From: Patescibacteria group bacterium
GTDB taxonomy: Bacteria; Patescibacteriota; Patescibacteriia; Buchananbacterales; UBA6539
Direction: 5' to 3'
Assembly: GCA_028688055.1 (NCBI GenBank)
Contig: JAQTYZ010000002.1
Location: forward strand, 4,256 to 68,255
Length of the DNA: 64,000 nucleotides
Shown: positions 13,337 to 64,000 of the stretch, piece by piece
Layout of the letters: every line of letters begins with the position of its first letter
Numbering within the stretch: position 1 is the stretch's first letter
Position numbers and translations under genes: made by a program
Notes under the pieces: model-generated
What the model was told of the DNA's origin: nothing
The model's database searches: none
The model's input: only the letters and a program-made list of their open reading frames with translations

Positions 13337-13342
13337 AAGTTA

Positions 13343-15369: not shown

Positions 15370-15371
15370 AG

Positions 15372-16106
15372 TTAGATATCATAATTTTTTACCATGCCAT
15401 CTAATCTTTTTATTTCAAAACCGACGCGTTGGCATTTATTGCCACAATTGGGACAAGACTCTCCTTCCAAAATCGTACCTACATCTCCAGTGCGAAATCC
15501 CTCTGGATAATGATTGGAATAAAATATCAATTCATTATTTAGCGAATCGACCTCAAACTTGCCTGATTCGGTAAAAACATGGTAACCACATGACAAATCA
15601 TCACAAGTTGTCCAGGCGACTCTCGCTTCAGTGAAACCATAGGTAGCATAAATTATTGTTCCTGGGCAGAGCATCCTTGATTCTTGAATAAATTTATTGT
15701 TGATGCCATTAGCTCCGATAATTAATTTCATCCGACTGAGATCGACATTATTTTCTTTGGCTAGGTTTAATGTCTTAAGAATGTAACCGGGCAGGCCGGC
15801 AATCATTTCCGGTGGAAATGATTTCATGATATTTATGGTTTTTTCTGATGTCACATGTTTGCCGCCACCGGTGTTTATTGTTAGAGAGCCGGTTATTTCT
15901 CCATACATGGCACCTAAATAATACCCCAGGTGAGGGGCAAAAGGTAATAAATTATAATAAACTCCGGCTTGCTTGTGGATCATCGAAAATCTAGAAATAC
16001 ATTTTTCCATGTTGATTTTGTCTTCCATGGTGTAAATTATCGGCTTAGCGCTTTTACCGGATGTTCCCGAACTGAAGAGAAGGAGAATGGGAGTGTTATT
16101 TTTCAT
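15372..16106 (-). CDS. adenylate-forming enzyme fragment (PaaK/CapK-like), N-terminally truncated
   Basis: The AMP-binding P-loop SSGTSGKSAKP lies at residue 12 rather than ~90-100, and there is no room upstream. C-terminal CPNCGNKC. Confidence 0.45.
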   Translation of the reverse strand: MKNNTPILLLFSSGTSGKSAKPIIYTMEDKINMEKCISRFSMIHKQAGVYYNLLPFAPHLGYYLGAMYGEITGSLTINTGGGKHVTSEKTINIMKSFPPEMIAGLPGYILKTLNLAKENNVDLSRMKLIIGANGINNKFIQESRMLCPGTIIYATYGFTEARVAWTTCDDLSCGYHVFTESGKFEVDSLNNELIFYSNHYPEGFRTGDVGTILEGESCPNCGNKCQRVGFEIKRLDGMVKNYDI

Positions 16107-16113
16107 ATGTTTC

Positions 16114-16863
16114 TTATTTATGAAATACTAATAATAAATATTTTCGGTTATCATCGGCGTATATTTTTTTAGAAAATGACCAATTTTTTAAGTATTTTTT
16201 ACTATTTAAATCTTTGGCTAGATTAATTGCAAAATCAGTTGTAGGAATGATATTTTTTGTTAGATCCTGCTTTTCAATAAGTACATATTTATTTTGACTT
16301 AATATTTTTATTAATTTAACTTCAGTATTCTTTAGTGGTACACCCTCCTTATCAAATTCATCAAGAATTATTAGACTACTATGTTCTTTTAAGCAACTTA
16401 CTATATTTGATATAGCTAATTCAGTATTTATAAAATATTGGTATGATTCTATTAAAACCGCAAGATCAAATTTTTTATCAATTTTTAAATTTTCTGCCGA
16501 AGTAAGAAGAAATGATACTTTGGGATTATGTTTTTTACCATACTTGATAAAATTTTGGTCAGGCACCACACAAAGACAATGGTAATTTTTATTCATAAAT
16601 TGTCTGGCCATACTGCCGATTCCACCGCCAACATCAATAATATCTTTTGTATCTACTGGAATTTTATCAATTACTAGTTTTGATAGATTTTCTTGAGCGT
16701 CAATTATGCTATCATTTTTGTTTTTGTAATAACCATAATGTATATGTTTCCAACCAAAAACTTTTAAAAAAGTAAAATGGGCCGACAAAAAATCCTTCTC
16801 CTTAATAATTTTAATTCTGAGATATATTATTTTTATTTTATAAATTATTTTTGAATAACACAT
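16114..16863 (-). CDS. class I SAM-dependent methyltransferase
   Basis: DVGGGIGSMA motif I and an acidic motif II. Confidence 0.65.
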   Translation of the reverse strand: MCYSKIIYKIKIIYLRIKIIKEKDFLSAHFTFLKVFGWKHIHYGYYKNKNDSIIDAQENLSKLVIDKIPVDTKDIIDVGGGIGSMARQFMNKNYHCLCVVPDQNFIKYGKKHNPKVSFLLTSAENLKIDKKFDLAVLIESYQYFINTELAISNIVSCLKEHSSLIILDEFDKEGVPLKNTEVKLIKILSQNKYVLIEKQDLTKNIIPTTDFAINLAKDLNSKKYLKNWSFSKKIYADDNRKYLLLVFHK

Positions 16864-16866
16864 ATT

Positions 16867-18969: not shown

Positions 18970-18970
18970 T
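18668..18970 (-). repeat. 303-bp perfect direct repeat, copy A (5' end of the GT8 paralog)
   Basis: Identical to 19668..19970 at an offset of exactly 1000 bp. Confidence 0.9.
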
Positions 18971-19969
18971 TTTTATTAATTTTTTTAAAAAGTAGTATGA
19001 TTTTGGATAATCTTTTTTAAGCCAAATACCAGTTAATCCGATTAAGAAGTCGAGTGACTCAATCAGCCGATATAACATCGCATAAGGAATAAAAAATACT
19101 CTTCGCATTTTTAACAGTAATTCGTATTTTTTTATTTCAAAATGACCCCAAATCTTGGTTGGCGGCAGGCGCAAGCTTAAATTAATTTCATCAGCACGAT
19201 CAAGGTTGTAGCGCCATATCTTATAAAAATAGGGGTGATAATCAATCGGTTTCTGGCAATTGAAAAAATTAATAATGATTGCCCTCGTTTTTTGTGGTTT
19301 TAGACAATTATATTTGATTAAGCTGAAAACATTAAGACAATAGAGCGGTGATATTATTTGTAGTTGTTTAATAAAATATAAAGTTAAGATCATTTCTTCA
19401 AGTGCTCCAAAAATAGTTTGATATTTATCTGCCAATTCTTTCAACCCAGTAAATGTATTTTTTTTTATAATAGTGGTGGAAAAGACGAAAACTCCACCAC
19501 TTAACATGAGGGAATTCAAGTCGTAAAGTTTTTCGCCTTCGCGCCTTATTTTTTTGTCAGCCTTATAAAAAAGATGTTTGAGACGGGATTTTTGCAGATA
19601 CAAGCTGTAGTTTGTAAAGCCAGCTATATTTTTAACTTCAAGTAAGTCATCTAGTGAAGCACAAACAATCAAGTCAGCATCCAGAAAAATTATTTTATCC
19701 CATTGCTTGAATTCTGATGTAAATAAATAGAGTTTACTCAATATGACTGCCGGCCAGCGCCCAACTAATTTTTCTGCCAATGGTTCGCATTTTTTGATTA
19801 AGATGCCTTTGTCTCTAAACCATTTCAAATCTTCTTCCGGCACTTCATGAGCTAACAGCATATAATCGCCTTGCCAACCAGAATTAAAATAAACACTGCT
19901 AAATAATTGCTTAGCAAAGTCTAAATATTTTTTATCGGCTAGAGTGACAAGAAGATTTTTTTTATTCAT
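18962..19969 (-). CDS. GT8-like nucleotide-sugar transferase; paralog of the upstream gene without the GNAT part
   Basis: The first ~100 aa are identical to the 700-aa protein. The same DxD motif is present (FLDADLIV). Confidence 0.5.
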   Translation of the reverse strand: MNKKNLLVTLADKKYLDFAKQLFSSVYFNSGWQGDYMLLAHEVPEEDLKWFRDKGILIKKCEPLAEKLVGRWPAVILSKLYLFTSEFKQWDKIIFLDADLIVCASLDDLLEVKNIAGFTNYSLYLQKSRLKHLFYKADKKIRREGEKLYDLNSLMLSGGVFVFSTTIIKKNTFTGLKELADKYQTIFGALEEMILTLYFIKQLQIISPLYCLNVFSLIKYNCLKPQKTRAIIINFFNCQKPIDYHPYFYKIWRYNLDRADEINLSLRLPPTKIWGHFEIKKYELLLKMRRVFFIPYAMLYRLIESLDFLIGLTGIWLKKDYPKSYYFLKKLIKNE

Positions 19970-19970
19970 T
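19668..19970 (-). repeat. 303-bp perfect direct repeat, copy B
   Basis: Identical to 18668..18970. Confidence 0.9.
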
Positions 19971-20285
19971 TACTCCGTTAAATACTTATTTTGCAATAAT
20001 AATCTTAAAGACGGGGTCTAGCTCACCAAACCAGGAATCCGTATGATAATTAATTATTGGTAGGAATATCTCGAAACTACCAATCATTTTTGGGCCAATT
20101 GTAACATCAACAAAAAAATCAACGGCCGGGCCTGGTAATACCGGATCGGGAAGCTTGAGTCTTAGGCCGTCATACAAGCGGTCTCTTAACTCACAACCAT
20201 CTTAAAGAAGTTAAAAGTTAGGACCAATATTGTTCATTTTAAAGGAAAAGTTTACTTTTTGTCCAACCTTAAATATAGAAGGTGT

Positions 20286-43324: not shown

Positions 43325-44473
43325 ATGAAAATCTCCTGCACCCAAGAAAATCTCAACCAAGGACTTTTCGTTGTTAGCCATCTTGCATCTAAAAATAGTG
43401 CCTTACCAATTCTTAATAATATTTTAATTAAAGCTCAAGAAAATAGTATTAAGTTGTCGGCCACTAATTTAGAAATTGGAGTTACTTGTGAAATTAGGGG
43501 TAAAGTTGAAATGGAGGGAGATTTTACGGTGCAATCTAAGCTACTAGCTGATTATGTAAATTTATTACCAAAAGAAAGAATTGATTTACTGGTCACCGAT
43601 CAGGATGGTCAAAATCCATTACTTAACATTGAGTGTAAAAATTATTCAACAAAAATAAACGGTCAGGGGGCTACGGAGTTTCCGCTAATTCCGCAAATTA
43701 GTCGCGTTCATTCATATTCCGTTGATAGTCAAGCGTTAAGGCAGGCAATTAGTCAGGTTATCTTTGCCGTTTCCATTAGTGAAACTAGACCGGAAATCAA
43801 CGGCGTTATGTTTAGTCTATCCCCAAGTGAATTAATTTTGGCGGCAACCGACGGTTACCGGTTAGCGGAAAAAACTATTAAACTAGACGGTAAATCAAAA
43901 GGAGGAGACCAACAGGTGATTGTACCAACTAGAACCCTTCAGGAATTACAACGCATTTTGGGAAGTTTTAAAGATCCCGCCGCGATTTCTGATTTGAAAA
44001 ATATTGATATCTATCTCGCCGAGAATCAAGTCTTATTTAGTTTTGGTGGGATCGAATTAATTTCGCGACTAGTGGAGGGGCAGTATCCCGATTATCGCCA
44101 AATAATCCCGCAACAATCAACAACTAAAATAGTTTTGAGTACCGCTGATCTTATTAGTGCCGCTAAGACGGCCAGCCTTTTTGCCAGAAGTGGTATTTAT
44201 GATATAAATTTGAGTTTTTCATCAACCAAAAAAGAAGCAACTGTTGGGGCAATTAATAACCAATTAGGAGAAAATGAGTCAACATTAAGTGCGGATATTT
44301 CCGGGAGTGATAATGATATTGTGGTTAATTATCGCTACTTATTGGATGCTTTACAAAATATTAATTCTGACCAAGTTGAAATAAAATTAATCGACAGCGG
44401 CAGTCCTTGTGCGCTTCGTCCCGCTGGAGCGAGTAGTGACTATATTTATATTATTATGCCAATCCGTCGCTAA
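43325..44473 (+). CDS. dnaN: DNA polymerase III beta sliding clamp
   Basis: MKISCTQENLNQGLFVVSHLASKNSALPILNNILIKAQE. Confidence 0.9.
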   Translation: MKISCTQENLNQGLFVVSHLASKNSALPILNNILIKAQENSIKLSATNLEIGVTCEIRGKVEMEGDFTVQSKLLADYVNLLPKERIDLLVTDQDGQNPLLNIECKNYSTKINGQGATEFPLIPQISRVHSYSVDSQALRQAISQVIFAVSISETRPEINGVMFSLSPSELILAATDGYRLAEKTIKLDGKSKGGDQQVIVPTRTLQELQRILGSFKDPAAISDLKNIDIYLAENQVLFSFGGIELISRLVEGQYPDYRQIIPQQSTTKIVLSTADLISAAKTASLFARSGIYDINLSFSSTKKEATVGAINNQLGENESTLSADISGSDNDIVVNYRYLLDALQNINSDQVEIKLIDSGSPCALRPAGASSDYIYIIMPIRR

Positions 44474-51394: not shown

Positions 51395-52954
51395 ATGCGG
51401 CTTATTAATCGAATCGCAAATTATTTTAGTAACCAGCCTTGGCGTCAGTCGATCTTGCTTTTCGTTTTAGCCGTTTCGTTGTTTGGCTTTCTTCACTCCG
51501 ACCCGACGTTTGCCGACCCGGACTCTTTTTATCATGCCAAAATGGCCGTCTTACTTAGTCAACGCGGTGCGGTAACGGAATTTCCTTGGCTGTCGGCCAC
51601 TAACTTGAAATATAGCTTTACTGATCATCATTTTTTGTATCATTTTATTTTAGTGCCGTTGGTGTTGTTGTTTCCGCCGCTAATCGGCTTGAAAATTTTT
51701 ACCGTCATCGCCGCGACGTTAGCGATCCTCGGATTTTTTTGGCTGTTGCGCTACCTTAAAATTCAGGGCGCATTTTGGTATGCGGTTTTTCTGTTAACCA
51801 TTAATCCGTTTATCTTTCGTTTAGCCTTAGCTAAAGCACAACCCCTGGTTTTTATTTTTTTATTTTTATTTTTGTATTTATTGTTTTCGCGCCGTTATCT
51901 TTGGTTGATTTTTGTCTCCTGTCTTTATGTCTGGCTTTATGCCGGCTGGACCTTGCTGCTTTTACTCGTTGGTCTCTATTGGTTTTTGGCGATGATTTGG
52001 CTAGTTAAAGAAAAAAATTGGAGCGTCGTTGTTAACAAAAGGACCAAAGCGCTTTGGCAAGTTTTTGGCTTGGTGTTTTGCGTTGGCCTAGGCTTGGCCG
52101 CGGGAATTTTTTTCAGCCCCTATTTTCCGCGTAATTTATTTTTTTACTGGGATCAATCTTTCAAAATTGCGGTGGTCAATTATCAGTATATCATTGGGGT
52201 TGGCGCTGAGTGGTACCCTTACGGCTTGGGGGAGTTATTTTTTTCCGCCGTGCCGTTTTTTATTATTTACTTGGTCGGTTTAGTCGTTTGGGTGGCGACT
52301 TACCGGCAGCAGTCGATGAATAGTTGGTATTTTTTCCTTTTAAGTTTTGGGTTTTTTGGTCTGACGTTAAAGTCGCGGCGCTATGTTGAATATTTTATTC
52401 CGTTTGCTCTCAGCTTTTCCGTGATCAGTATTAATGTTGTTATGCCTGAGCTTAAACGTCGGCTCGGAAAGCAGTTGCCCCGTAAGCTGATTTTAGTTTT
52501 ACCGTTACTTCTAATTTTAGCCATTTCCCCGGTCATTTTCCGTGACCTGAAGTCAGTTAAAGATTCTTATGCCCGAGGGTTTAAATTTGATAAGTTCGCC
52601 GCGCCCAGTCGTTGGCTAGTGGAGAATTCACTGGCGGGCGATATTGTTTTCCATTCTGATTGGGACGAATTTCCGCTTTTATTTTATAACAATGACCACA
52701 ATTTTTATTTAGTCGGACTCGACCCAACTTTTATGTACGAGTATGACCATGAATTGTATCGTCAGTGGGTTGGCATAACCACCGGTCAGGTTAGCACTAA
52801 TTTATATCAGACTATTAAGGAGTTGTTTGGGGCAAAGTATGTCTTGGTTGATATTAATCAAAATAAAAAGTTCGACCAAAATCTTAAAGCCGATGGCGGC
52901 TTTAACGAAGTTTTTTCCAGTCCGGAAGCCAAAATTTATCGGCTCGCCGATTAG
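51395..52954 (+). CDS. GT-C-like polytopic membrane protein
   Basis: More than 12 TM helices. First-loop FADPDSFYHAK acidic motif. Confidence 0.45.
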   Translation: MRLINRIANYFSNQPWRQSILLFVLAVSLFGFLHSDPTFADPDSFYHAKMAVLLSQRGAVTEFPWLSATNLKYSFTDHHFLYHFILVPLVLLFPPLIGLKIFTVIAATLAILGFFWLLRYLKIQGAFWYAVFLLTINPFIFRLALAKAQPLVFIFLFLFLYLLFSRRYLWLIFVSCLYVWLYAGWTLLLLLVGLYWFLAMIWLVKEKNWSVVVNKRTKALWQVFGLVFCVGLGLAAGIFFSPYFPRNLFFYWDQSFKIAVVNYQYIIGVGAEWYPYGLGELFFSAVPFFIIYLVGLVVWVATYRQQSMNSWYFFLLSFGFFGLTLKSRRYVEYFIPFALSFSVISINVVMPELKRRLGKQLPRKLILVLPLLLILAISPVIFRDLKSVKDSYARGFKFDKFAAPSRWLVENSLAGDIVFHSDWDEFPLLFYNNDHNFYLVGLDPTFMYEYDHELYRQWVGITTGQVSTNLYQTIKELFGAKYVLVDINQNKKFDQNLKADGGFNEVFSSPEAKIYRLAD

Positions 52955-52955
52955 T

Positions 52956-54308
52956 ATGAAATTTTTTTTTAATCAAACCAGGCGGTTAAACTCGTTTGGC
53001 CTTTTTTTATTTGTTATTTTTTCTTTATTATCTGCCGCGGTTAGCTATTTTGATTTTCAAAATAGTTGGTATCTGACCACTATTTATTTATTATTTTTAG
53101 CGTACGTCGTCTATTTTATTTTTTGTCAGGCTTTTTTAAATGTTGATCTTAGTCAGTTAACTTTGAAGTGGCCAATTTTTATCACCATCTCAATTTTAGC
53201 GACCCTCTTAATGATGATGCCGGGCTACGGTAACGATTTTTATCATTACGTCGCTGAAGATTTAATTTTAGTTAAATATCACCTCAACCCTTATCTGGTT
53301 AGTCCCAGCCAATTGCCTTTTGAGCCGGCGACTTGGTTAAGTTTTTGGCGGGACTTGCCAGCGCAACATGGACCTTGGCGAATTATTTTAACTCTGCCCG
53401 CCGCCGTTGTCACGGCCTCAAATTTTGTTGCGGGTATTATTAGCTACAAAATAATAACGGCGGGATTTTTTTTGGCAACGGCGGTTGTTTTTTATAAGTT
53501 GCTCATTATTTTAAATATTGCCGAGGCCAAACGGGGACTACTACTTCTACTGTGGAACCCTTTAATGTTATTTGGGACTTTTGCCGGCGGTGGGACTGAT
53601 ATCTTAATGACCTTTTGGTTATTGTTATCATTATATTTTGCGGCGAAGCATAAATGGCTACCTTCAATTGCCGCTATTTCAATTTCGATTTTAGTTAAGT
53701 ATGTCACCATCTTAATTTTGCCTTTATTGATGATGTTCTTTATTTCCACGGCCTTGGGGGCAGCTAAAAAAATATATTTTTTACTCAAACAAACGCTGGT
53801 TTTTACCGTTATCGTCGGTGTTTCTTTTTATCCTTTTTGGGCCGGCTTTAAAATTTTTGCCGGCTTACTCTGGGTGTCACACTTTTTTGACCTTAGTTCG
53901 TTCCCCGGCTTTATTGGCTCGGTGCTGCTACTTGTGGATCCAAATTTTGAGCCCTACTCGCTTAAGCTGCCGTTTGAATTAATTTTTATTGCTATTTATT
54001 TTTTTATTTTGTTAAAGTTTTTTTTGATCCCAGAAAAAAAAATCCAAAATTTAGTTGGTTATTCAGCCCTCATTATTGGTGTCTTTCTGATCTTAGGAAA
54101 ATTTTGGTTTTATCCGAAGTACTTAATTTGGCTGTTACCGTTGTTGCTTTTGAGTGGCAAAAAGTTTTATTGGTTGGCCATTTTTTTAAGCGGTCTAATT
54201 GTTGGGTCGCCTTTCCCTTCGGTGCCATTGCCAGTTTTTTTTATTGTTCCCAGTTTGGTTTTTGGGGTTTACTTTTATCTTAAGGATTTAGCCGGTTTTG
54301 AGATATGA
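52956..54308 (+). CDS. polytopic membrane protein (start moved to the ATG at 52956)
   Basis: Removes the 128-bp overlap with the upstream gene. More than 12 TM helices. Confidence 0.45.
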   Translation: MKFFFNQTRRLNSFGLFLFVIFSLLSAAVSYFDFQNSWYLTTIYLLFLAYVVYFIFCQAFLNVDLSQLTLKWPIFITISILATLLMMMPGYGNDFYHYVAEDLILVKYHLNPYLVSPSQLPFEPATWLSFWRDLPAQHGPWRIILTLPAAVVTASNFVAGIISYKIITAGFFLATAVVFYKLLIILNIAEAKRGLLLLLWNPLMLFGTFAGGGTDILMTFWLLLSLYFAAKHKWLPSIAAISISILVKYVTILILPLLMMFFISTALGAAKKIYFLLKQTLVFTVIVGVSFYPFWAGFKIFAGLLWVSHFFDLSSFPGFIGSVLLLVDPNFEPYSLKLPFELIFIAIYFFILLKFFLIPEKKIQNLVGYSALIIGVFLILGKFWFYPKYLIWLLPLLLLSGKKFYWLAIFLSGLIVGSPFPSVPLPVFFIVPSLVFGVYFYLKDLAGFEI

Positions 54309-55024
54309 CCAAAATTTTAATTGTTATTCCGGCCTACAATGAAGAAAAAATTTTAGCCACCAATGTTTTGACGCTTTTTAATTATTGTCAAAAAAATATC
54401 GTTGACGACTGGGAGATTGTCATTGCCAACAATCTATCAACAGATTGTACTGCCACCATTGCCAAATCCTTAGCCGACAAATTGCCTCACGTTAGCTCCA
54501 TTACTATTAATACTAAAGGTAAGGGCGTCGCTATTGCGGGTGGCTGGAACTCGGTTGCGGCGGACGTTTATTGTTTTATGGATGCTGACTTGGCAACTGA
54601 CTTGTCAGCCTTGCCGTCCTTAATTGCCGGGATAAAAAGCGGGTATGATTTGGTGGTTGGCAGTCGTTATGTTGAAGGCGCGCAAGTCTCCCGTACCCTG
54701 GCTAGACGAATTTTTTCTTTTGGCTATCGGCTGGTTTTGCAGCTGTTGCTCGGAACAAAAATAAAAGACTTGCCTTGTGGCTTTAAGGCGATTAATAGTA
54801 AGATAAAAGAGTCAATTTTGCCACTGCTTCACAATCAAGGCTGGTTTTTTGATACCGAATTAGTTATCGTTTCAGAAAAGCTGGGCTTTAAGATTAAGGA
54901 AATTCCGGTGACCTGGTTTGAACCGCGTGGTCCGGCCGATAAAAGCCGGGTTAATTTATTGGCAGTAGCCTGGTCGTATCTTCAGGAAGTGATTTGGTTG
55001 CGGTCAAGATTAAAAAAAATGTAG
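54305..55024 (+). CDS. GT2 polyprenyl-phosphate glycosyltransferase
   Basis: ILIVIPAYNEE...CFMDADLATD. Confidence 0.75.
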   Translation: MTKILIVIPAYNEEKILATNVLTLFNYCQKNIVDDWEIVIANNLSTDCTATIAKSLADKLPHVSSITINTKGKGVAIAGGWNSVAADVYCFMDADLATDLSALPSLIAGIKSGYDLVVGSRYVEGAQVSRTLARRIFSFGYRLVLQLLLGTKIKDLPCGFKAINSKIKESILPLLHNQGWFFDTELVIVSEKLGFKIKEIPVTWFEPRGPADKSRVNLLAVAWSYLQEVIWLRSRLKKM

Positions 55025-55025
55025 T

Positions 55026-55742
55026 ATGCCAAAAATTTATATTGTCATTCCAACCTATAACGAAAAAAATAATATTGTTAAACTTTTAGACCTTATTTTT
55101 AGGCAGTCAATTGAAGGGCTAAATGTTTTAGTGGTTGATGATAACTCACCTGATGGTACGGGTGATGTTGTTGATGGATTAAGGGCAGGCAATCTGCGGT
55201 TGAATATTTTACATCGCCACCATAAAGACGGTTTAGGCCGCGCTTACATTGATGGTTTTAAACTGGCCCTCACAGCCGGGGCGGATTTAATTTTGGAGAT
55301 GGACGCTGATTTGTCGCATGACCCTAAATATTTGCCAGCCATTTTAGCGGCGGCCACTAAGTTTGATTTGGTTATTGGCTCAAGGTATATTAAGGGCGGG
55401 GGAGTCGCTAACTGGAATATGGCCCGCCGACTAATTAGTCGTTTTGGTAATTTATATGCCCGCGTCATTTTAGGGTTGTCGGTTCGGGATTTAACCGGCG
55501 GTTACAAATGCTACCATCGCCAAGTTTTAGAAAACATTGGGCTTGATGACTTAAGTTCGGTCGGCTACAATTTCCAAATTGAAACAACCTACCAAGCGCT
55601 GCGGGCGGGATTTAGGGTCGGTGAAGTTCCGATTGTGTTTGTTGAACGAGCCGAAGGCCAGTCGAAATTTAGCCTTGGCATTATGTTGGAAAGTTTTTGG
55701 AAAGTTTTTATTTTAAAGTATAAGTCGCGCGTCACGAAATAA
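55026..55742 (+). CDS. GT2 dolichyl/polyprenyl-phosphate mannose synthase-like
   Basis: IYIVIPTYNE...VLVVDDNSPDGT...EMDADLSHDP. Confidence 0.8.
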   Translation: MPKIYIVIPTYNEKNNIVKLLDLIFRQSIEGLNVLVVDDNSPDGTGDVVDGLRAGNLRLNILHRHHKDGLGRAYIDGFKLALTAGADLILEMDADLSHDPKYLPAILAAATKFDLVIGSRYIKGGGVANWNMARRLISRFGNLYARVILGLSVRDLTGGYKCYHRQVLENIGLDDLSSVGYNFQIETTYQALRAGFRVGEVPIVFVERAEGQSKFSLGIMLESFWKVFILKYKSRVTK

Positions 55743-55748
55743 TATTTT

Positions 55749-56435
55749 ATGTCTACGGTTTCGATTGTCGTGCCAGTTTATAATGAGCGAGCCTATATTG
55801 CTAAGATTTTGAACCAGCTTGATGAGCTGGTATTTAGGGGCAATGCCAAAGAAATTATTGTGGTTAATGATTGTTCAACTGACGGTACGACTGAAATTTT
55901 AAATCAGTTTGTCGACCGTTTCAAAATTTATAATCATAAGACTAATTGTGGTAAAGGGGAGGCACTGAAAACCGGTTTTGCGAAGTGTCGGGGTGATATT
56001 ATTGCTGTCCAAGATGCCGACTTGGAGTATAACCCAGCCGACTTAATTGAATCAGTGGCGCTGCTTAATAGTACTGAGGCGAGGGTGGTTTATGGCTCGC
56101 GGATGATGGCTCATAATCCCGTTGGTCATTGGGCATATTATTTTGGCAACCGATTAATTTCGTTTCTCACGCGCTGGCTATATGCAGCTAAAATAACTGA
56201 CGTGGAGACCGGCCACAAAGTTTTTCGCCGTGAAGTTCTTGAATTAATGAAATTGGAAAATAATGATTTTGGATTTGAGGTTGAATTTACGGCCAAGCTT
56301 TTAAAACAGGGGATTAAAATTATGGAACGTCCAATCAGTTATCAGCCGCGCCAATTCAACGAGGGCAAGAAGATTGGCTGGCGTGATGGGCTCAAGGCCG
56401 TCTGGCTGCTAATCAAGTATCGGTTTAAGGACTAG
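55749..56435 (+). CDS. GT2 glycosyltransferase
   Basis: VSIVVPVYNE...VVNDCSTDGT...VQDADLEYNP. Confidence 0.75.
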   Translation: MSTVSIVVPVYNERAYIAKILNQLDELVFRGNAKEIIVVNDCSTDGTTEILNQFVDRFKIYNHKTNCGKGEALKTGFAKCRGDIIAVQDADLEYNPADLIESVALLNSTEARVVYGSRMMAHNPVGHWAYYFGNRLISFLTRWLYAAKITDVETGHKVFRREVLELMKLENNDFGFEVEFTAKLLKQGIKIMERPISYQPRQFNEGKKIGWRDGLKAVWLLIKYRFKD

Positions 56436-56437
56436 TA

Positions 56438-58090
56438 ATGACTTTAAGGCAAATTTTTAAATCTATTACATTAGCTGAGTGGCGCTGGGTGACTGCGCTT
56501 GGTTTTTTAATGATCGTGATTACCACCGCCCCTTTGCTTTATGGTTTTTTAATAACGCCGTCGGGCAGCGAATTTACCGGTATTCATTTTGCCGCGCCCA
56601 ATGATTGGTTTGTCTATTATTCTTACATTGAACAAGTTAAGCAAGGACACTTACTATTTCGCGATTTGTTCGCCTCAGAACCGCATACTCCGGTTTTAAA
56701 TATTCTCTGGCTGGCTGTTGGTTTTCTGGCAAAAATATTTAACCTTTCAGCCATCGTTGCTTTTAACCTCGCCCGAATTTTTCTCATTGGTGTCTTTTAT
56801 TTTATTCTTTATTTATTTTTAGCTTATTGGTTTGAGGAAATAAAATGGCGTCGATGGTTGACGGTTTTTATTTCTTTTTCGTCTGGCTTAGGGATACTAC
56901 AAATCAACCGCATTATTCAGTTTCCCTTTAATTTTGCTCATAATCAATTCAATTGGCCAATGGATTTGTGGGTGCCGGAGTCAAATACTTTTTTGACCCT
57001 TTATTATTCGCCCCATTTTATTGCTTCGCTGAGTTTAATTTTACTGACTTTTTTCTTGCTGGTCTTAGCCGTTGATAACCACAAACTAAGCTACTCATTT
57101 TTAGCGGGTTTGTCGGCCGCCGCCTTATTTGAATTTCACCCCTTTCATATTTTGACTATTTTTGTTGTCACTCTTATTTACTATTTTATTATTTGGCGGC
57201 GGAAAGTAGTTAATTTTATATTCCTAGCCGCTAGCTATTTGATTTTGTTTTTTGTCTCTTTGCCGGTTGTCGGGTACTATTTATATTTATTAAAAACTGA
57301 CTGGGTAACTCAGCAAAAAGCGGCCCAAAATTTAACTTTTACTACGCCGCTTTGGCTCACCTTAGTTAGTTATGGTTTGTTGTTGCCATTATTTGTTTAT
57401 GGTTGGTGCTTAGTTGTCAAAAAAAATAATTTAACTAGCAAAAATATTTTATTACTGGTCTGGCCCGTGGTCCAGTTTTTTTTAATTTACTTCCCGGTGA
57501 ACTATCAGCGACGGCTAACAGAAGGGCTGCATCTTCCCCTGGCAATTTTTAGTGGCATTGCCATTGTTGAATTGTATCGTCGACTGCAAAATAATCAGCA
57601 GCCGAAGGCGCGGTGGTTATTGGCGAATCGTTATGCCTTTATTTTTTTATTCGGTGCCCTGTTAATCAGCTCAAATATTTTTGCGCTGGCGTCAGACCTT
57701 TTTATTTACGCCGATCAACGAGATTTAGCTTATCTGCCCCGCGCCGAAGTTGCGGCCGCGACTTGGTTGTCCACGCTGCCGGGTAATATTATTGTTTTTA
57801 ATTCAGCGAGCAACATTGTAAATATCATTCCGGCGTATTCCGGTCAAACCGTTTTTGTTGGTCATGGTGTGGAAACGCCTGATTTTGGCAGTAAACAAAT
57901 GATGGTTAACTATTTTTTTTCGAACAATCGTGATGTGGCGTCCGAGCATAATTGGTTGAAAAAAAATAGTATTTCCTACCTTTATTATGGCCCCGCCGAA
58001 CAAAAACTTGGCCACTTTAATCCCGAACTCAAAAATTATTTAAAGCTGGTTTATCGTAATGATTTAGTTTCAATTTACCAAGTCCTATGA
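56438..58090 (+). CDS. polytopic membrane protein (GT-C-like), paralog A
   Basis: N-terminal L.QIFKSITLAEWRWV and YYSYI motifs shared with the next gene. Confidence 0.45.
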   Translation: MTLRQIFKSITLAEWRWVTALGFLMIVITTAPLLYGFLITPSGSEFTGIHFAAPNDWFVYYSYIEQVKQGHLLFRDLFASEPHTPVLNILWLAVGFLAKIFNLSAIVAFNLARIFLIGVFYFILYLFLAYWFEEIKWRRWLTVFISFSSGLGILQINRIIQFPFNFAHNQFNWPMDLWVPESNTFLTLYYSPHFIASLSLILLTFFLLVLAVDNHKLSYSFLAGLSAAALFEFHPFHILTIFVVTLIYYFIIWRRKVVNFIFLAASYLILFFVSLPVVGYYLYLLKTDWVTQQKAAQNLTFTTPLWLTLVSYGLLLPLFVYGWCLVVKKNNLTSKNILLLVWPVVQFFLIYFPVNYQRRLTEGLHLPLAIFSGIAIVELYRRLQNNQQPKARWLLANRYAFIFLFGALLISSNIFALASDLFIYADQRDLAYLPRAEVAAATWLSTLPGNIIVFNSASNIVNIIPAYSGQTVFVGHGVETPDFGSKQMMVNYFFSNNRDVASEHNWLKKNSISYLYYGPAEQKLGHFNPELKNYLKLVYRNDLVSIYQVL

Positions 58091-59751
58091 ACAAGATTTT
58101 TAATTCAATCAGCCGCGCGGAATGGCAGTGGGTAGCTTGGTTAACCACGTTGGTGATGATTTTGACTATTATCCCTTATCTATTGGGTTACTGGTTGGCG
58201 CCGGCTAATACTGTCTACAATGGTATTCATGCTCTGAGTCCCGGTGATATCCCGGTTTATTATTCATACATCAATCAAGCTGCTAGTGGTAAGATTTTTT
58301 TTACCGATTTGTTTACCACGGAAAAGCAAACGCTGGGCACTTTTAATGTTTGGTGGTTGGGGATTGGACTATTGGCCGGCTTACTTCAGTTATCGGCTCC
58401 GGTTATATTTCAGCTGTCTCGCCTAGCAATGATCCCAGTTTTTACGGTTGTTTTATACTTTTTTTTGAGCTATCTCTTTAACGATTCTGTTTTACGCCGC
58501 CTGGCTTTTTTCTTGGTTTTATTTTCTTCTGGTGTCGGCGCTTATGTTTCCCCGGCCCTTGACTCCATTGCCTACCGCAATTTGGATCAATATCCTTGGC
58601 CGATTGATTTGTGGCTGGTGGAGTCAAATACCTTTAACGCCCTTTACCAAACTTCGCATTTTATTGCCTCCATTACGCTTACTTTGCTGATTTTTATTCT
58701 GATGCTTCTGGCCTTTGAAACTGGCAAGGTTCGCTATGCCGTCTGGGGCGGTTTAGCCGCCCTATTTTATTTTAATTTTCACCCTTATTATGTGCCGGTA
58801 ATTTATGGCACCGTGGGACTTTATTGGCTGGTTTGTTCTTTTAAAGCTAAAAAATTGCTCTGGCAATATTTTTGGCAGCTGATAATTTTTGGGGTCATCT
58901 CGGTACCGTCGGTGTTTTATCACGCCTGGTTAATTCAAAATAGTTTTGTCATTGGCATTCGCGCCACCCAAAATGTTACTTTAATTTCACCGCTCATCTA
59001 TGTGTTGTTAGGTTATGGTTTTTTAATCCCCGGATTTTTATTTGGCTTAGCTGTTGTTAAAAAACTAAAAATTAACCAGCGCGTCGTCTGGCTGTTGTTG
59101 TCCTGGCTGGTTGTCAGTGTGGCCCTAATTTATTCTCCTTTTCCGTTTCATAGCCGCTATACTCAGGGCGTACAAATTGTTTTAGCCATTTTTACGGCGG
59201 TGGGATTATTATATTTTTATCGTTGGGCCCAAATCCATTGTCCCAGAAAAATTTATGATTTTTGGATTAAAAACCCGGCGCTTTGGCTAATGCTATTTAT
59301 TTTGTTATTTGCGCCTTCCAATATTTATGGGCTGGTGCGCGACGTTTATTATGCCGTTTATCAACCAGGCGAAATCGCTACCTATTATTACATTCCAACC
59401 GACGATTTGCAGGCGTTTGCTTGGTTAAAAAATCAGCCAAAAATTCAGAATGTTTTATCGTTTGGTCTGGCCGACAGCTTCATCCCAGCGTTTAGCGGCC
59501 AGGCCTCCTATGCCGCCCATGCTCAGGAAACGTTATTTTTTAATTCCAAGTTTATTCAGGTTGTTTGGTTCTATGGTTCCAATATTAATGATTCCGCGAA
59601 AGAAAAATTTTTAGCGGCTAACAATATCACTTTTGTTTTTTATAGTGATTATGAAAAAAAACTGGGTGACTTTGCCCCCAGTCAAAAAAAATATTTAAGT
59701 TTGGTGTTTAGCACGCCGACGGCCAAAATTTACCAAGTCATTCAACCGTAA
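58087..59751 (+). CDS. polytopic membrane protein (GT-C-like), paralog B
   Basis: About 30% identical to paralog A over the full length. 4-bp overlap. Confidence 0.45.
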   Translation: MNKIFNSISRAEWQWVAWLTTLVMILTIIPYLLGYWLAPANTVYNGIHALSPGDIPVYYSYINQAASGKIFFTDLFTTEKQTLGTFNVWWLGIGLLAGLLQLSAPVIFQLSRLAMIPVFTVVLYFFLSYLFNDSVLRRLAFFLVLFSSGVGAYVSPALDSIAYRNLDQYPWPIDLWLVESNTFNALYQTSHFIASITLTLLIFILMLLAFETGKVRYAVWGGLAALFYFNFHPYYVPVIYGTVGLYWLVCSFKAKKLLWQYFWQLIIFGVISVPSVFYHAWLIQNSFVIGIRATQNVTLISPLIYVLLGYGFLIPGFLFGLAVVKKLKINQRVVWLLLSWLVVSVALIYSPFPFHSRYTQGVQIVLAIFTAVGLLYFYRWAQIHCPRKIYDFWIKNPALWLMLFILLFAPSNIYGLVRDVYYAVYQPGEIATYYYIPTDDLQAFAWLKNQPKIQNVLSFGLADSFIPAFSGQASYAAHAQETLFFNSKFIQVVWFYGSNINDSAKEKFLAANNITFVFYSDYEKKLGDFAPSQKKYLSLVFSTPTAKIYQVIQP

Positions 59752-61681
59752 TTGAGCCGAGCTTAAGCTCGGGCCCGATTACGGTTTTTTTGTCAATAAC
59801 ATCTTGTGCGGAACGTAGGCCATTTAATTCAATTCCGCCACCGTCAATGGTTAGCAAAGTGGCAACTAAGTCGTAAGTGCCACTTGCAAAACCCGCGGCC
59901 CCCAGCCAATAATTTGTCTGAATTATTTTATTTGACTCACTTTCGCTGTTTATTAAATCATAGGCCCAGGGCATAATTAACTGGCTGATTTTTTTAGCTG
60001 ATTGTGAAAAAGTGAATTCAAGCCGATAAATTTTACTTAGGGGTTTATTGATTTGCCAAAATAAACTCATTTTTTTGTCCGTTTGTGTCACGCCCCTAAA
60101 GGTAAGCTCGTCATTTATTTTAATATTTTGGGTCGTCATCTTTTGTGGCAACGCCGTTAATTTTTCCACTAAATGCTCACTGGTGAAATGATTTTTTTGG
60201 AACAGTGCACTAGTCGCCGTTTGATCAAGTAGGCCAAAACCATTAAGTAGCGACGGCCATTTTTTTAGTGCCGTTGCGTATTGGTCTTGATAAAATGGGT
60301 GAAAACCGTACTGCAGTTGATAGGTAACCAGATCCGGCCAGTCGATAATGATATATTCGGTGTCCGCTGGCAATGTATAAGCAGTTTGCAAAAATTGCTG
60401 CTTGCCTAAAAAAATATAGTTTAAGGAATAAAGCTTTTCCCTTGAGGCGAGGGCCGGTAGCATTTTGTACGACGCGGCCACCACCGCTTGCGGCGGTATC
60501 GCGGCTAATAATTTATTGGTCCCATCGTTTCGATTAGTATTTAGTTGCGCTAAGGACGTCATCGGCCCTAAAGTAATTGATCCATATATCACCGCTGTTG
60601 TCAAGCCGACCACGGCCAGCGGCCAATGTTTATTGATTAGGGTGGTGGACGCGTTGGGGCTAACATTTTTTTTAAAATTGCTTACGGCATAAATGGCAGC
60701 CAAAAATACCGCTGGTAGTAATAAGCTGACATAATGCGTTTGGAGAATAATATCGCCGCCACCGCTGGTGCTCAAAAATAATTGGAGGAAAATTAGCAAG
60801 GCGATAATTAGCGGCGGCAGATAGAATAGGGGCAAAAAAAATAAGGGCATTAATAAACCGAGTAGAAAAATAAAATTATTGATTCGGAATAAATAGCTTA
60901 GCGGTAGCCATGGCTTGGTTAAAAGATTAGTTATAGCCGTTGGGATGTTGTTTCCCAGCCACGGGTAGTAAATTAAAAACTTGTATTGATGGCTGGCGGC
61001 AAAAACACCACTAATGGTAATGGCTAACGCCAGGTAACCTAGGCCTAGCAGGATCGGCGTTAACCGCCAGTTTATTTTTCTTTTTTTCAGCCAAGCGTAG
61101 GCACCAAACATAATTATGACCAAAGCGACATCTTCGCGGGACATTAAGGCGACTATTGAAGCCGCCAGAAATGGCAAAAACAAATTGGACTCAAAAAAGT
61201 AAATTGCCAGCCAGATGGCCATGATGGCGAAAGGCATTAAGCTGAACTCAAACATATTAATGTTTTCGACAAACGGGTTGGCCAGCCAGAATATTGCAAA
61301 GGCTACCGCCCAATTGTTGCCGACAATTTTTTTCGCAATCAAATAAATGGGTATGGCGGCAGCGGCGAGTGTTAGGGTTTGGAGGATGAGCAAGGTCTGT
61401 GGCCCTCGGTATAGCCAATAGAAAGGAAGTAGTATTAAAATTAGCGGCGAAAAATGATCGCCCAAGTAAGTCGGCGGGTGAATCGACGAAGCAAACCAAT
61501 GGCCTACGCTGGAAGTAAAAAAAACTTGGTTGATGATGGCCAAGTCTAGCGCGTTATAGCCGTGCTGGTAATATTTTGTCAGGGTGGAAATTGCAAAAAT
61601 TGTAACATAAATAATGACGGCACCAATCACCACGCCCAAACCGTGCTGGCTAATTAAATTGTTGAGGTGTTTTCCTTTCAT
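59738..61681 (-). CDS. large membrane protein (DUF2079-like architecture)
   Basis: N-terminal multi-TM region and a ~250-aa C-terminal soluble domain. Confidence 0.45.
   Translation of the reverse strand: MKGKHLNNLISQHGLGVVIGAVIIYVTIFAISTLTKYYQHGYNALDLAIINQVFFTSSVGHWFASSIHPPTYLGDHFSPLILILLPFYWLYRGPQTLLILQTLTLAAAAIPIYLIAKKIVGNNWAVAFAIFWLANPFVENINMFEFSLMPFAIMAIWLAIYFFESNLFLPFLAASIVALMSREDVALVIIMFGAYAWLKKRKINWRLTPILLGLGYLALAITISGVFAASHQYKFLIYYPWLGNNIPTAITNLLTKPWLPLSYLFRINNFIFLLGLLMPLFFLPLFYLPPLIIALLIFLQLFLSTSGGGDIILQTHYVSLLLPAVFLAAIYAVSNFKKNVSPNASTTLINKHWPLAVVGLTTAVIYGSITLGPMTSLAQLNTNRNDGTNKLLAAIPPQAVVAASYKMLPALASREKLYSLNYIFLGKQQFLQTAYTLPADTEYIIIDWPDLVTYQLQYGFHPFYQDQYATALKKWPSLLNGFGLLDQTATSALFQKNHFTSEHLVEKLTALPQKMTTQNIKINDELTFRGVTQTDKKMSLFWQINKPLSKIYRLEFTFSQSAKKISQLIMPWAYDLINSESESNKIIQTNYWLGAAGFASGTYDLVATLLTIDGGGIELNGLRSAQDVIDKKTVIGPELKLGSITVE
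59746..59792 (+). terminator. rho-independent terminator embedded in the 3' end of the convergent gene
   Basis: ccgtaat-tgagccgagc-ttaa-gctcgggcc-cg-attacgg, then T8. Confidence 0.6.
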
Positions 61682-61699
61682 GTTGGCTTAAGTTTACTT

Positions 61700-61746
61700 T
61701 TTTATGTCACAAAAAACAATCCCGAACCTAAGCTGGCGGGATTGTT
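61700..61746 (-). terminator. terminator after the pilin-like gene
   Basis: aacaatcccg...cgggattgtt hairpin, then T5 on the minus strand. Confidence 0.55.
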
Positions 61747-61758
61747 TAAGTTTTTGGA

Positions 61759-62178
61759 TTAAAGACTGGTACCCTGGGTGGCAATCAATAATTGGTCAAT
61801 GACAAAGTAGGTAATGATATAGGCCGACAAAACGATGGCCACGCCGACAATAGCTGCGGCCATTGTTTTTTTGGCCGTTGAAATCCGATCTTCATTACCC
61901 GCCGCTGTCATCCACGTAAAGCCTGCATATAAAATTAAAACCAAAAAAATTATTGCTAAGAAACCCAAGGCCACTTTAATAATCTGCGAGATCGATTTGG
62001 CAAAAGTCGATGAATCGACGTGTTGATTGGGCGAGTAGATATCTTCGACCGGCTTAAGCTGGTCGCGGATTAAATTATTAACTTGGCTGCTTTCCGCCAG
62101 CGCGATTGGCGCTGCCACTAATGCTAGGACGTTAAAAACCATTACCAGGGTTAGAAAAAATTTCAATTTATTTTTCAT
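61759..62178 (-). CDS. TrbC/VirB2-like pilin-family secreted two-TM protein
   Basis: Signal peptide, then YAGFTWMTAAGNED motif between two hydrophobic helices. Confidence 0.6.
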   Translation of the reverse strand: MKNKLKFFLTLVMVFNVLALVAAPIALAESSQVNNLIRDQLKPVEDIYSPNQHVDSSTFAKSISQIIKVALGFLAIIFLVLILYAGFTWMTAAGNEDRISTAKKTMAAAIVGVAIVLSAYIITYFVIDQLLIATQGTSL

Positions 62179-62358
62179 AGCGCTTTTTTATTTTTTAAAT
62201 GACTGTTCATTGGAAGTATAACACTTTTTGAGCGTTTAGCTAAGCGACAGCGGGGGATAATTATTGACAATTTAATGATATTATGGTATTTTTTATTGTC
62301 CAGTAACGGTGAATTTCAACCCTTCCATCGCTAAGGTGGAAGATTAAGGAGGCTCTGA

Positions 62359-62829
62359 ATGAAACGGATTATGTTGCTCGTTGTTTTGTTGCCATTGGCG
62401 GGCTGTGGTTCCCTGGGCACGAGATTTTCTTGGGAGACATTTCGCGCCCAAGAAAGAACTATCGTGGCGCAGAACAAATCGGACCAGGCATACTGGGAGG
62501 CGCTTGGTGAAAGCTACCGACCAAGCGGTCAGCCGGGAACAGTTGATTCGGCGGGGATTAAGTCGCCTGGGTACTATCAGAATGGTGTACTGATCAATCG
62601 GGCTTGGCAAATGGTGACGTTTGTTATCACCGGTCAGAAGTCGCTGACGCGAACCGTCCCGATTGGTTCAACGGCCAAAGTCTCCTTACCCCCAGGGATG
62701 TATCGGGTAGAAATCTATTACTCGAGATCCACGACGCCATACCGGCAAGCCGATTTACCGGTTGACGCCGAGCGTGGTGATTGCGACATTGATGGTCAGG
62801 TGTGCGATTTCTTTATGATCGCGCCTTGA
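62359..62829 (+). CDS. lipoprotein
   Basis: MKRIMLLVVLLPLAGC lipobox. SD aaggagg. GC-rich relative to its neighbours. Confidence 0.6.
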   Translation: MKRIMLLVVLLPLAGCGSLGTRFSWETFRAQERTIVAQNKSDQAYWEALGESYRPSGQPGTVDSAGIKSPGYYQNGVLINRAWQMVTFVITGQKSLTRTVPIGSTAKVSLPPGMYRVEIYYSRSTTPYRQADLPVDAERGDCDIDGQVCDFFMIAP

Positions 62830-62837
62830 CTGATGGG

Positions 62838-62925
62838 ATTGCTGTGTCACTCGCTCCTTGCAATGATCGAAAAATACACCTCAGTAAATCGTGTCATTGC
62901 GAGCGAACAAAGTGAGCGAAGCAAT
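62838..62925. other. nested inverted-repeat element (possible sRNA or structured site)
   Basis: gggattgct...agcaatccc outer stem, ttgcaatga / tcattgcga inner stem. Confidence 0.25.
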
Positions 62926-62984
62926 CCCACACCCCAACCGACCAACCCGTTCTTTGAGGGGACAGCCCGTGATGCTGGCCCTTC

Positions 62985-63022
62985 TTTTTTTTGACAAAAA
63001 AATCCCCGCTGAACGCGGGGAT
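62985..63022 (-). terminator. terminator for the pilin-like paralog
   Basis: aatccccgc-tgaa-cgcggggatt with A/T runs on both sides. Confidence 0.65.
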
Positions 63023-63042
63023 TAGTATTAGCCTTTTGGAGT

Positions 63043-63483
63043 TTACGGATTGGTCGGTGTGCTTGTTCCCGAACCTAGGCCAGAACCATTGGTTGCTTTG
63101 AGAATATTGTCGATAACAAAGAAAGTAATAAAGTAAGCCGCCAGAACAATTGTTAAACCAATAATTGCCGCGGAGATAATTTTTTTTGCCCGCGAAATAT
63201 TTTCTTCATTGCCCGCGGCCAGCATCCAGGTGTAACCGGCATAAATTATCAGGACAATAAAAATGATTCCCAAAAAAGACAGTAAGACTTTGATGATTTG
63301 GCTGACGGTGACTGAAAAATTGGCATTAGTGCCTAAGCCGCTGGCCGTTAAGAAGGCTTGGTTTTGAACATCTAACTGTGCTTTAGTGTCGCCGGTTACG
63401 GTTTGGGCTAATGACTGGGAAGTCACACCTAAAACCGCCGAGCACATCAGGGTTAAAATAATAAATTTTTTTAGTTTATTCAT
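63043..63483 (-). CDS. TrbC/VirB2-like pilin-family protein, paralog 2 (start at the internal MNKLKKF)
   Basis: YAGYTWMLAAGNEENISRAKKIISAAIIGLTIVLAAYF. Confidence 0.6.
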   Translation of the reverse strand: MNKLKKFIILTLMCSAVLGVTSQSLAQTVTGDTKAQLDVQNQAFLTASGLGTNANFSVTVSQIIKVLLSFLGIIFIVLIIYAGYTWMLAAGNEENISRAKKIISAAIIGLTIVLAAYFITFFVIDNILKATNGSGLGSGTSTPTNP

Positions 63484-63493
63484 ATTGATAAAT

Positions 63494-63913
63494 TTAAGTT
63501 CCACTGGGGATTTGAGCCGTTGGTCCGCTTGATAGCACTGTACTAACAAAGGTGTAAATGGCCGCGGCTGATAAAATAATAATGATGCCGATAATACCAT
63601 CACGAATGATTTTTTTAGCCTGGGAAACTTTTTCTTCATTGCCCGCCGCTGTCATCCACAGATAGCCGCCGTAAACGGTGTAGGAAATAAAAATGATGCC
63701 AATTAAGGAAATAAATAATTGCACAATTGTTCCGGCGACTGTCGCCAGCGCGGTTTCTTTTGGTTTGGTTGTATCGTAGCCGGCGCCATTTTCGCCAGCG
63801 GTATCTTGGAGCATCCCTTGCAGCGTGTTATCAGCTGCCAGCATGACGGTTGGCAATAGTAGCATCGTTAGTAAGCCAGCCGTGATAATGAATTTTGTGA
63901 TTTTTTTGTTCAT
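63494..63913 (-). CDS. TrbC/VirB2-like pilin-family protein, paralog 3 (start at the internal MNKKITKF)
   Basis: YGGYLWMTAAGNEEKVSQAKKIIRDGIIGIIIIL. Confidence 0.6.
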   Translation of the reverse strand: MNKKITKFIITAGLLTMLLLPTVMLAADNTLQGMLQDTAGENGAGYDTTKPKETALATVAGTIVQLFISLIGIIFISYTVYGGYLWMTAAGNEEKVSQAKKIIRDGIIGIIIILSAAAIYTFVSTVLSSGPTAQIPSGT

Positions 63914-63920
63914 ATTTTTA

Positions 63921-64000
63921 TTGTGGGGTGCCAGCATTAAAGCCAGTGGCCGCGGCCACTTTCGAAACGACAAAGGCCGTTATTGCATAGGCTGACAAGA
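63921..64000 (-). CDS. C-terminal fragment of a 4th pilin-like paralog (runs off the window)
   Basis: The minus-strand frame ends ...LSAYAITAFVVSKVAAATGFNAGTPQ*, matching the C-termini of the other paralogs. Confidence 0.4.

Follow-up and report, generated by a model that had tools for sequence, protein, structure and literature searches.

VirB2-like pilin paralogs at the distal end of an 11-gene chromosomal array in a Patescibacteria genome

Tandem series of small, divergent VirB2-like pilin genes have been described in Patescibacteria. A search of 3,035 genomes of the group with PF04956 and PF18895 recovered 441 VirB2-like arrays from 383 assemblies; these comprise 2-11 genes each, either in uninterrupted tandem or with a single non-pilin gene in between, and their within-array identity is 25% on average and 54% at maximum (Quiñonero-Coronel et al., 2025, Microb Genom 11:001409; PMC12102498). 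In the same survey pilin genes were close to virB4 in 1135 of 1948 assemblies, type IV secretion system (T4SS) genes were frequently located near dnaA, and PF18895 pilins adjoined virB4 in Microgenomatia (Table S3 of that study). A pilin series inside the T4SS cluster of Southlakia epibionticum is essential (PMC10633639; PMC12857230), and the role of the T4SS in Patescibacteria is described as unknown (2025 review, PMC12857230; 2024 perspective, PMC11665869). Here we analyze a 64-kb stretch of DNA (the window) from a metagenome-assembled genome (MAG) of this group, the 3' end of which carries three complete minus-strand genes for VirB2-like pilin paralogs (A, B, and C) and the 3' tail of a fourth (D). 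These genes lie at the distal end of an 11-gene array, which is a further instance of the class published in 2023-2025 and of an already known kind.

The array resembles those of the 2025 survey in its PF18895 membership, its phylum, its tandem arrangement with one non-pilin gene, its low within-array identity, and its location near dnaA. Its 11 genes stand at the top of the published range, and related loci reach 12-14. Unlike many of the surveyed arrays, it is not near virB4, and its closest relatives are found in Buchananbacteria and other members of the class ABY1. The series in S. epibionticum ML1 (SEML1_0006-0019; Wang et al., 2023, Cell) likewise consists of VirB2-like proteins of divergent sequence and similar structure in a monoderm member of the Patescibacteria; however, that array has six genes, lies inside a cluster with VirB4, VirB6, and a VirB3-like gene, and was found essential by transposon sequencing, whereas the present one has 11 genes, and neither the 64-kb window nor the adjoining 4.6 kb contains a T4SS gene. 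Among diderm T4SSs, Agrobacterium VirB2 and RP4 TrbC (PF04956) share the long signal peptide, the two hydrophobic helices, and the short charged loop, and the conserved Trp at the end of helix 1 aligns in register with that of Agrobacterium VirB2. In contrast to TrbC/VirB2, the present proteins score below the PF04956 threshold, have a loop ∼8 residues longer with an invariant G-N-E-E, lack an adjacent virB1 or virB3, belong to a monoderm envelope, and are without evidence of cyclization. Several divergent VirB2 copies also occur in tandem in the host-dependent Bartonella and Anaplasma phagocytophilum, where they are read as antigenic or host-range variants, whereas the copies described here are old, positionally conserved, and under purifying selection. 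The pilin-like family of Mycoplasma integrative and conjugative elements (ICEs; NF045849, Mbov_0395) comprises similarly small, pilin-like proteins with two transmembrane (TM) helices from wall-less or monoderm MPF-FATA-type systems, but that family is single-copy, ICE-borne, and linked to conjugation, and the scores obtained here are 24-31 bits against a cut-off of 40 bits.

Family membership and architecture

Coordinates are window positions unless labelled with an L-number. Protein C is 100% identical to NCBI PHW95_01920, from a MAG named 'Patescibacteria group bacterium'; the source is thus an ultra-small bacterium with a reduced genome, as supposed by the initial annotation of the window. 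A 100% identical copy of protein C is also present on L001, a 28-kb Logan metagenome contig that extends 4.6 kb past window position 64000. The open reading frame (ORF) listing and the raw sequence give the three complete genes and the D tail, which encodes ...LSAYAITAFVVSKVAAATGFNAGTPQ*, corresponding to the C-terminal helix and tail; D continues, together with seven more paralogs, beyond the window end. The initial annotation had recognized four minus-strand genes for ∼140-aa proteins, one of them running off the window, each with a signal peptide and two TM helices. Both statements are borne out, the first by ORFs A, B, and C plus the 83-nt D tail, and the second by three hydrophobic segments in each complete protein (residues 7-23, 66-82, and 106-122 in A; 4-20, 63-79, and 107-123 in B; 5-21, 60-76, and 107-123 in C). 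The start of B was set at MNKLKKF because this start is kept in its L002 orthologue, q10; an alternative longer ORF, reaching 63639, overlaps gene C.

All three complete proteins exceed the PF18895 (T4SS_pilin) gathering score of 26.6 bits (Table 1) and are members of that family. Precomputed PF18895 matches exist for 10 of the 11 paralogs on L001, and an A2-based hidden Markov model (HMM) finds all 11. The HMM matches (Pfam E 2e-7 to 3e-11), 90 database homologues, and the purifying selection on orthologues (see below) rule out chance ORFs. Between the two TM helices, A, B, and C carry the motif Y.G[FY].WM.AAGNE[ED], which the initial annotation had called invariant. The motif in D, located outside the window, reads YAGYLWMMARGNEE, and the 'AAGNE' portion is thus not invariant. 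Both the loop motif and the small-residue helix show very strong conservation across hundreds of homologues. The AlphaFold2 (AF2) model of C is a helical hairpin formed by residues 52-88 and 93-128 with pLDDT >90, and the mature form is modeled likewise.

Alignment of an 85-homologue profile with Agrobacterium VirB2 by hhalign placed helix 1, the Trp-Met pair, and helix 2 in register. The target, used alone and as a 4-sequence profile, is 99.2% identical to annotated virB2. Homology to VirB2 proper would rest on the Pfam family definition together with sub-threshold TrbC matches in relatives; precomputed PF04956 matches are present in P0055, P0059, P0075, and P0085, and a fusion protein encoded at L047 scores 22 bits.

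On L001 the array comprises 11 co-directional paralogs in the order p1-p10, an opposite-strand lipoprotein gene, and p11, so that the window genes D, C, B, and A correspond to p8, p9, p10, and p11. Most pairs within p1-p10 are separated by only 4-10 nt. The earlier count of at least four paralogs was therefore correct but understated, and the array is not contiguous: the plus-strand lipoprotein-like ORF and a terminator-like hairpin stand between A and B, and a second such hairpin follows A. The organization agrees with the definition of a Patescibacteria VirB2-like array (at least two PF18895 or PF04956 genes, in tandem or with one non-pilin gene between; PMC12102498), as does the divergence of the paralogs, which share 25-41% global identity with C. 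Local identities between paralogs measured by BLAST are 26-62% (mean 36%).

Conservation of the array and of its individual paralogs

A scan of 185,579 species genomes, a set that does not include the present MAG (not a GTDB representative), yielded 80 related loci. The best of these, from Candidatus Buchananbacteria, is 54% identical; the others include loci from Falkow-, Uhr-, and Magasanikbacteria, assigned to class ABY1 in Table S1 of PMC12102498. Array sizes were counted in the 67 of 80 loci whose arrays are uncut by a contig end. Sixty-three of these contain a tandem array of 5-14 copies and four contain a single copy (median 7), and the pilin ORFs are co-directional without exception (631/631).

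L002, a contig from a related organism, contains nine pilins, the lipoprotein gene, and the DUF2079 gene in the same order as L001. Nine paralogs have 1:1 syntenic orthologues there, with 68-86% identity and nonsynonymous divergence (dN) of 0.09-0.20. Synonymous sites are saturated between the two contigs (proportion of synonymous differences, pS, 0.6-0.8), and the ratio of dN to synonymous divergence (dN/dS), where computable, is ∼0.05-0.11. The orthologue of A is 86% identical (dN/dS ∼0.05) and that of B is 80% identical (dN/dS ∼0.055). The flanking DUF2079 gene, with a dN of 0.31, has changed more than the pilins. The pooled proportion of nonsynonymous differences (pN) rises from 0.065 in the hairpin core and 0.10 in the paralog-specific, predicted outward segment (both at pS ∼0.7) to 0.18 in the tail and 0.27 in the signal peptide; even the variable outward segment is constrained (pN/pS 0.14). 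In six further genomes (L003-L007 and L076) the best matches of p1-p11 are collinear with array position, and paralog order is thus conserved over seven genomes. The only DNA shared among the paralogs is a 44-nt motif (66-86% identity) with a period of ∼415-430 nt. Comparison of the paralogs at the DNA level revealed no tracts pointing to gene conversion and no recombination-prone repeats. Since this motif is common to them without longer stretches of identity, recent duplication or gene conversion is ruled out. As judged from these comparisons, the paralogs diverged in the distant past, and purifying selection maintains every copy.

Other features of the related loci include pilin domains fused to long extensions (L069:9857-11464, L075:3852-6008, L047:12173-13603, and L025:4991-6349), with Big_5 Ig-like domains among the extensions in L069 and L075. 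The pilin domain is at the C-terminal end in L025 and N-terminal in the other three, an arrangement that fits an outward C-terminus and a role in surface display. Downstream of many arrays, at 0.1-2 kb (mostly ∼1 kb), is a gene for a ∼190-aa protein (L082:13081-13674 and 18 other loci) whose C-terminus is weakly similar to cell-wall-binding EntA/EntB (E 4e-4); it has no counterpart in the window. It could be a VirB1-like wall-remodelling partner. Many array-bearing public MAG records are titled 'uncultured Gammaproteobacteria bacterium' (L006, L010, L014, L016, and many others) or, for L051, 'Acutalibacteraceae'; these look like mislabelled or mis-binned contigs.

Array head, transcription units, and chromosomal setting

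Just past the window end, a gene for a solute-binding protein (SBP) is located directly 5' of p1, its stop codon overlapping the p1 start. The product is an orphan SBP_bac_1/8 lipoprotein with a GFGC-type lipobox. In 42 of 47 cases the SBP gene is directly followed by one for a divergent, Cys-bearing p1-type pilin, and the stop codon of the first often overlaps the start codon of the second; the two remain paired even at loci with 3-5 kb between them and the main array. None of the 80 loci has an ABC ATPase within 10 kb. The TRAP small subunit DctQ (PF04290), the label that one source attaches to a homologue, was rejected: B scores 18.7 bits against a threshold of 28.3 bits, and the neighboring SBP is of the ABC type (SBP_bac_1/8), not DctP. 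The word 'solute' is absent from the main text of the 2025 survey (PMC12102498). The genes recurring within 10 kb of the 80 related arrays encode the SBP_bac_1/8 lipoprotein (46 loci), GT2 enzymes (37), sugar nucleotidyltransferases (29), GT-C-like membrane proteins (25), and DUF2079 proteins (12).

The second gene of the array, p2, stands apart from the other paralogs. It alone has a strong Shine-Dalgarno sequence (aaagggggtgagaaaATG), which is kept in L004, L006, and L007; a 14-bp GC hairpin follows it at a position kept in four genomes (z -3.3 to -6.1); and it is the most conserved paralog across species, with 75-84% identity as compared with 42-63% for the others. From these three properties p2, a gene outside the window, probably encodes the major subunit, and the in-window genes probably encode subunits of lower abundance.

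Table 1. Positions of the pilin genes and associated features in the window and on contig L001
Feature	Position	Strand	Description
Pilin paralog A (p11)	61759..62178	-	139 aa; 11th and last of array; PF18895 31.5 bits, E 1.8e-7
Pilin paralog B (p10)	63043..63483	-	146 aa; S/T/G-rich C-terminal tail; PF18895 31.0 bits
Pilin paralog C (p9)	63494..63913	-	139 aa; start MNKKITKF; PF18895 43.5 bits, E 3.3e-11
Pilin paralog D (p8)	63918..64000 (83 nt)	-	132 aa; last 26 codons + stop in window; full gene L001 4187-4585
Lipoprotein-like ORF	62359..62829	+	156 aa; lipobox LAGC; not a pilin; splits A from B
Intrinsic-terminator-like hairpin with U-tract	63001..63023	-	3' of B; 9 pairs (6 GC), then TTTTTTG; -18.8 kcal/mol, z -3.9
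Terminator-like hairpin	61718..61743	-	just 3' of A; AATCCCG...CGGGATT, then GTTTTTT; -16.9 kcal/mol, z -3.35
Sigma-70-like promoter match	62275..62302	-	TGGACA-16-TATCAT, ∼97 nt 5' of A; 10/12 positions
dnaA	41705-43066		
dnaN	43325-44473		
SBP gene	L001:3-980		directly 5' of p1
p1	L001:977-1498		Cys-bearing pilin
p2 and following spacer	L001:1671-2112		

The main operon, with D, C, and B at its end, is predicted to stop at the terminator-like hairpin 3' of B, and pilin A appears from the sequence to be a separate transcription unit. The hairpin following A was missed by a consensus terminator scan because of its 12-nt loop. The promoter match upstream of A is weak evidence, as sigma-70-like sites are no more numerous in the region than expected from shuffled sequence. 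The 156-aa lipoprotein-like ORF that separates A from B matched no Pfam or NCBIfam family; it occupies the same position in relatives, with identities of 69% (L002), 38% (L004), 36% (L005), and 30% (L003), and its dN/dS relative to L002 is ∼0.13. The convergent intergenic region also contains a 36-nt element, GTCATTGCGAGCGAACAAAGTGAGCGAAGCAATCCC, at 62893-62928, with a partly complementary copy nearby as judged by eye. The element is single-copy in the window and without an Rfam match, and an inverted-repeat search reported none. The only Rfam match over 61500-64000 was a sub-threshold Trp-leader that overlaps the terminator.

The setting of the array is chromosomal. The cumulative GC-skew minimum at ∼42-44 kb coincides with dnaA and dnaN and marks the replication origin, and the array begins ∼19 kb from dnaA, which fits the origin-proximal location reported for T4SS genes of Patescibacteria. 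The presence of these two genes together with polA, smc, yidC, ruvC, and PBP1A in the window rules out a plasmid or ICE. The remaining content is rich in surface-glycan biosynthesis, with many GT2, GT4, and GT8 genes, GT-C-like polytopic proteins, and DUF2079. Directly beside the array, 51395-61681 forms an extracytoplasmic-glycosylation block containing an MptA_B-like gene, three GT2 genes, genes for two ∼550-aa GT-C-like proteins, and DUF2079. The interval 12000-20000 is a low-GC island (0.29-0.32, as compared with 0.40-0.50 elsewhere) packed with genes for GT2 and GT8 enzymes, methyltransferases, and deacetylases; it may be a glycan cluster gained by horizontal transfer. At 1498-8835 is an ORF of 2445 aa with no Pfam matches, which may encode a giant surface protein.

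Assembly and function of the array products

We consider it reasonably probable that the window genes encode PF18895 VirB2-like subunits that are built into a filament by a distal VirB4-type T4SS. Each precursor would be exported by Sec and its signal peptide cleaved. The mature protein of ∼110 aa would reside in the membrane as a two-helix hairpin, with the short charged loop (W-M-x-A-x-G-N-E-E...A-K-K) in the cytoplasm and the paralog-specific segment of ∼30 residues and the short tail facing outward. A VirB4-powered T4SS of the monoderm (MPF-FATA-like) type, encoded elsewhere in the genome, would extract the subunits and polymerize them into a surface filament, which would serve the bacterium in its epibiotic contact with a host cell.

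A number of results weigh against filament assembly by a T4SS. The initial annotation had named the proteins TrbC/VirB2-like pilins; PF18895 supports the name for A, B, and C, but PF04956 does not, as C scores 13.9 bits (E 0.064) against a gathering score of 27.9 bits and A and B are not listed. The best NCBIfam match, NF045849, is below its cut-off of 40 bits (31.5, 24.5, and 30.3 bits). The hhalign comparison with Agrobacterium VirB2 is weak (probability 6-11%, pairwise E 0.003-0.006). The structure prediction proposed in the initial annotation produced a confident hairpin but no significant match in the PDB: Foldseek searches with the full-length and mature AF2 models gave none below E 2.9, the Aeropyrum conjugation pilus (8dfu) appeared at rank 21 with a non-significant E of 6.2, and a paralog-profile search of PDB sequences returned only a designed TM protein (E 0.1). 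The fold searches are uninformative because a helical hairpin is a generic fold. No VirB4, VirD4, or VirB6 gene is present in the window, and the earlier remark that a T4SS ATPase is absent from it was confirmed by annotation and by a Walker-A scan, in which the only proteins of at least 300 aa were SMC and DnaA. Neither placement within a T4SS cluster (virB1, virB3, and virB4 adjacent) nor proximity to virB4 is seen here. The three genes are likewise missing within 10 kb of the 80 related arrays, whose neighbors were clustered and annotated; the Walker-A ORFs of at least 450 aa near these arrays are FtsH and PilB only, and NCBIfam found no T4SS-like families among the unannotated neighbors. 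The conserved neighbors are instead the orphan solute-binding lipoprotein and glycosylation genes. Finally, a pilus of these proteins has so far been observed in no member of the Patescibacteria (PMC12857230; PMC11665869). With regard to the missing machinery, Table S1 of PMC12102498 records VirB4 as 'Yes' for the ABY1 genomes of L020, L031, L036, and L041, as well as for seven of the nine Buchananbacteria in that table, so that partner machinery does exist in the lineage, away from the arrays; these records concern related ABY1 genomes, not the present MAG.

The absence of T4SS genes nearby, the weak similarity to VirB2, and fold and PDB searches that do not discriminate would also be expected if the products were non-polymerizing, small proteins that Sec exports to the membrane or the exterior, such as membrane-resident accessory subunits or effector-like or host-membrane-inserting peptides, and shared with pilins only their two-helix hydrophobic architecture. 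The TM7x counterparts were initially interpreted as six putative effector genes, and PMC12102498 calls them a 'Sec secreted array'. We nevertheless regard non-polymerizing products as unlikely: PF18895 is matched above threshold and sub-threshold TrbC matches recur among relatives, the strong conservation of the loop motif and small-residue helix over hundreds of homologues fits packing in a polymer, and in other classes the same family is located inside virB4 clusters and is essential. The head of the array allows a different proposal, in which a T4SS-independent surface module is formed by the SBP lipoprotein and the Cys-bearing p1, which would act as the nucleus or cap for the other paralogs in a fibre or membrane complex, possibly glycosylated by the neighboring GT-C/GT2 enzymes and serving in ligand or nutrient capture. 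The SBP-pilin adjacency, kept even at a distance from the main array, the absence of an ABC ATPase (0/80 loci), the recurrence of GT2, GT-C-like, and DUF2079 neighbors, and a Ser/Thr content of 17-27% in the predicted outward segments are in keeping with such a module. However, the SBP association may be inherited synteny within one class, the loci show neither an assembly ATPase nor another machine that could take its place, most related genomes do have VirB4, and glycosylation of the pilins is speculative and without supporting evidence; we judge the module to be quite improbable. Equally doubtful in our estimation is a more specific version, in which the ABY1 array is an autonomous operon unlinked to virB4, with an SBP-coupled Cys-bearing p1, one major and about nine minor subunits, and a location among GT-C/GT2 genes, that specifies a heteromeric, possibly glycosylated, SBP-bearing surface fibre. 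If true, this would be a pilus for capturing nutrients or host glycans, not a conjugation-type one, and maybe one not assembled by a T4SS.

The model of the initial annotation, a rapidly diversifying pilin family under positive selection, was based on the divergence of the paralogs; such a family would give antigenic or host-range variation. Their low identity (25-41% to C, BLAST mean 36%), the concentration of differences in the outward N-terminal segment, and the analogy with Bartonella and Anaplasma VirB2 offered in PMC12102498 speak in its favor. The comparison of orthologues, however, contradicts both of its elements. The copies are not rapidly diverging, as the 1:1 syntenic orthologues are 68-86% identical and collinear over seven genomes, and neither the dN/dS of ∼0.05-0.11 nor the pN/pS of 0.14 in the variable segment indicates diversifying selection. 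The pilins also change less than the flanking DUF2079, and recombination-prone repeats are missing. At the divergence sampled here this model is largely refuted by the sequence comparisons, and we consider it very improbable. Returning to VirB2-like subunits of a filament, we favor ancient, individually conserved, and non-interchangeable paralogs that make up a heteromeric filament or a fixed set of specialized subunits over antigenic variation, since every array position is individually conserved, the exposed segment included.

Much of bacterial diversity belongs to the Patescibacteria, whose T4SS proved essential in the single species examined; what this system does is described as completely unknown, and a monoderm T4SS pilus is yet to be demonstrated. 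The locus analyzed here introduces no new principle and provides a large, 11-gene example. Four points may go beyond the cited sources: the deep positional orthology, with every paralog under purifying selection; a paralog that is probably the major subunit; arrays that in this lineage are not linked to virB4; and the conserved pair of SBP lipoprotein and first pilin. The individual conservation and fixed position of each paralog argue for non-redundant subunits as opposed to antigenic variation. An array that is genetically uncoupled from virB4 and coupled to a solute-binding lipoprotein, and in which one paralog has the signatures of a major subunit, offers testable hints on the function of these arrays.

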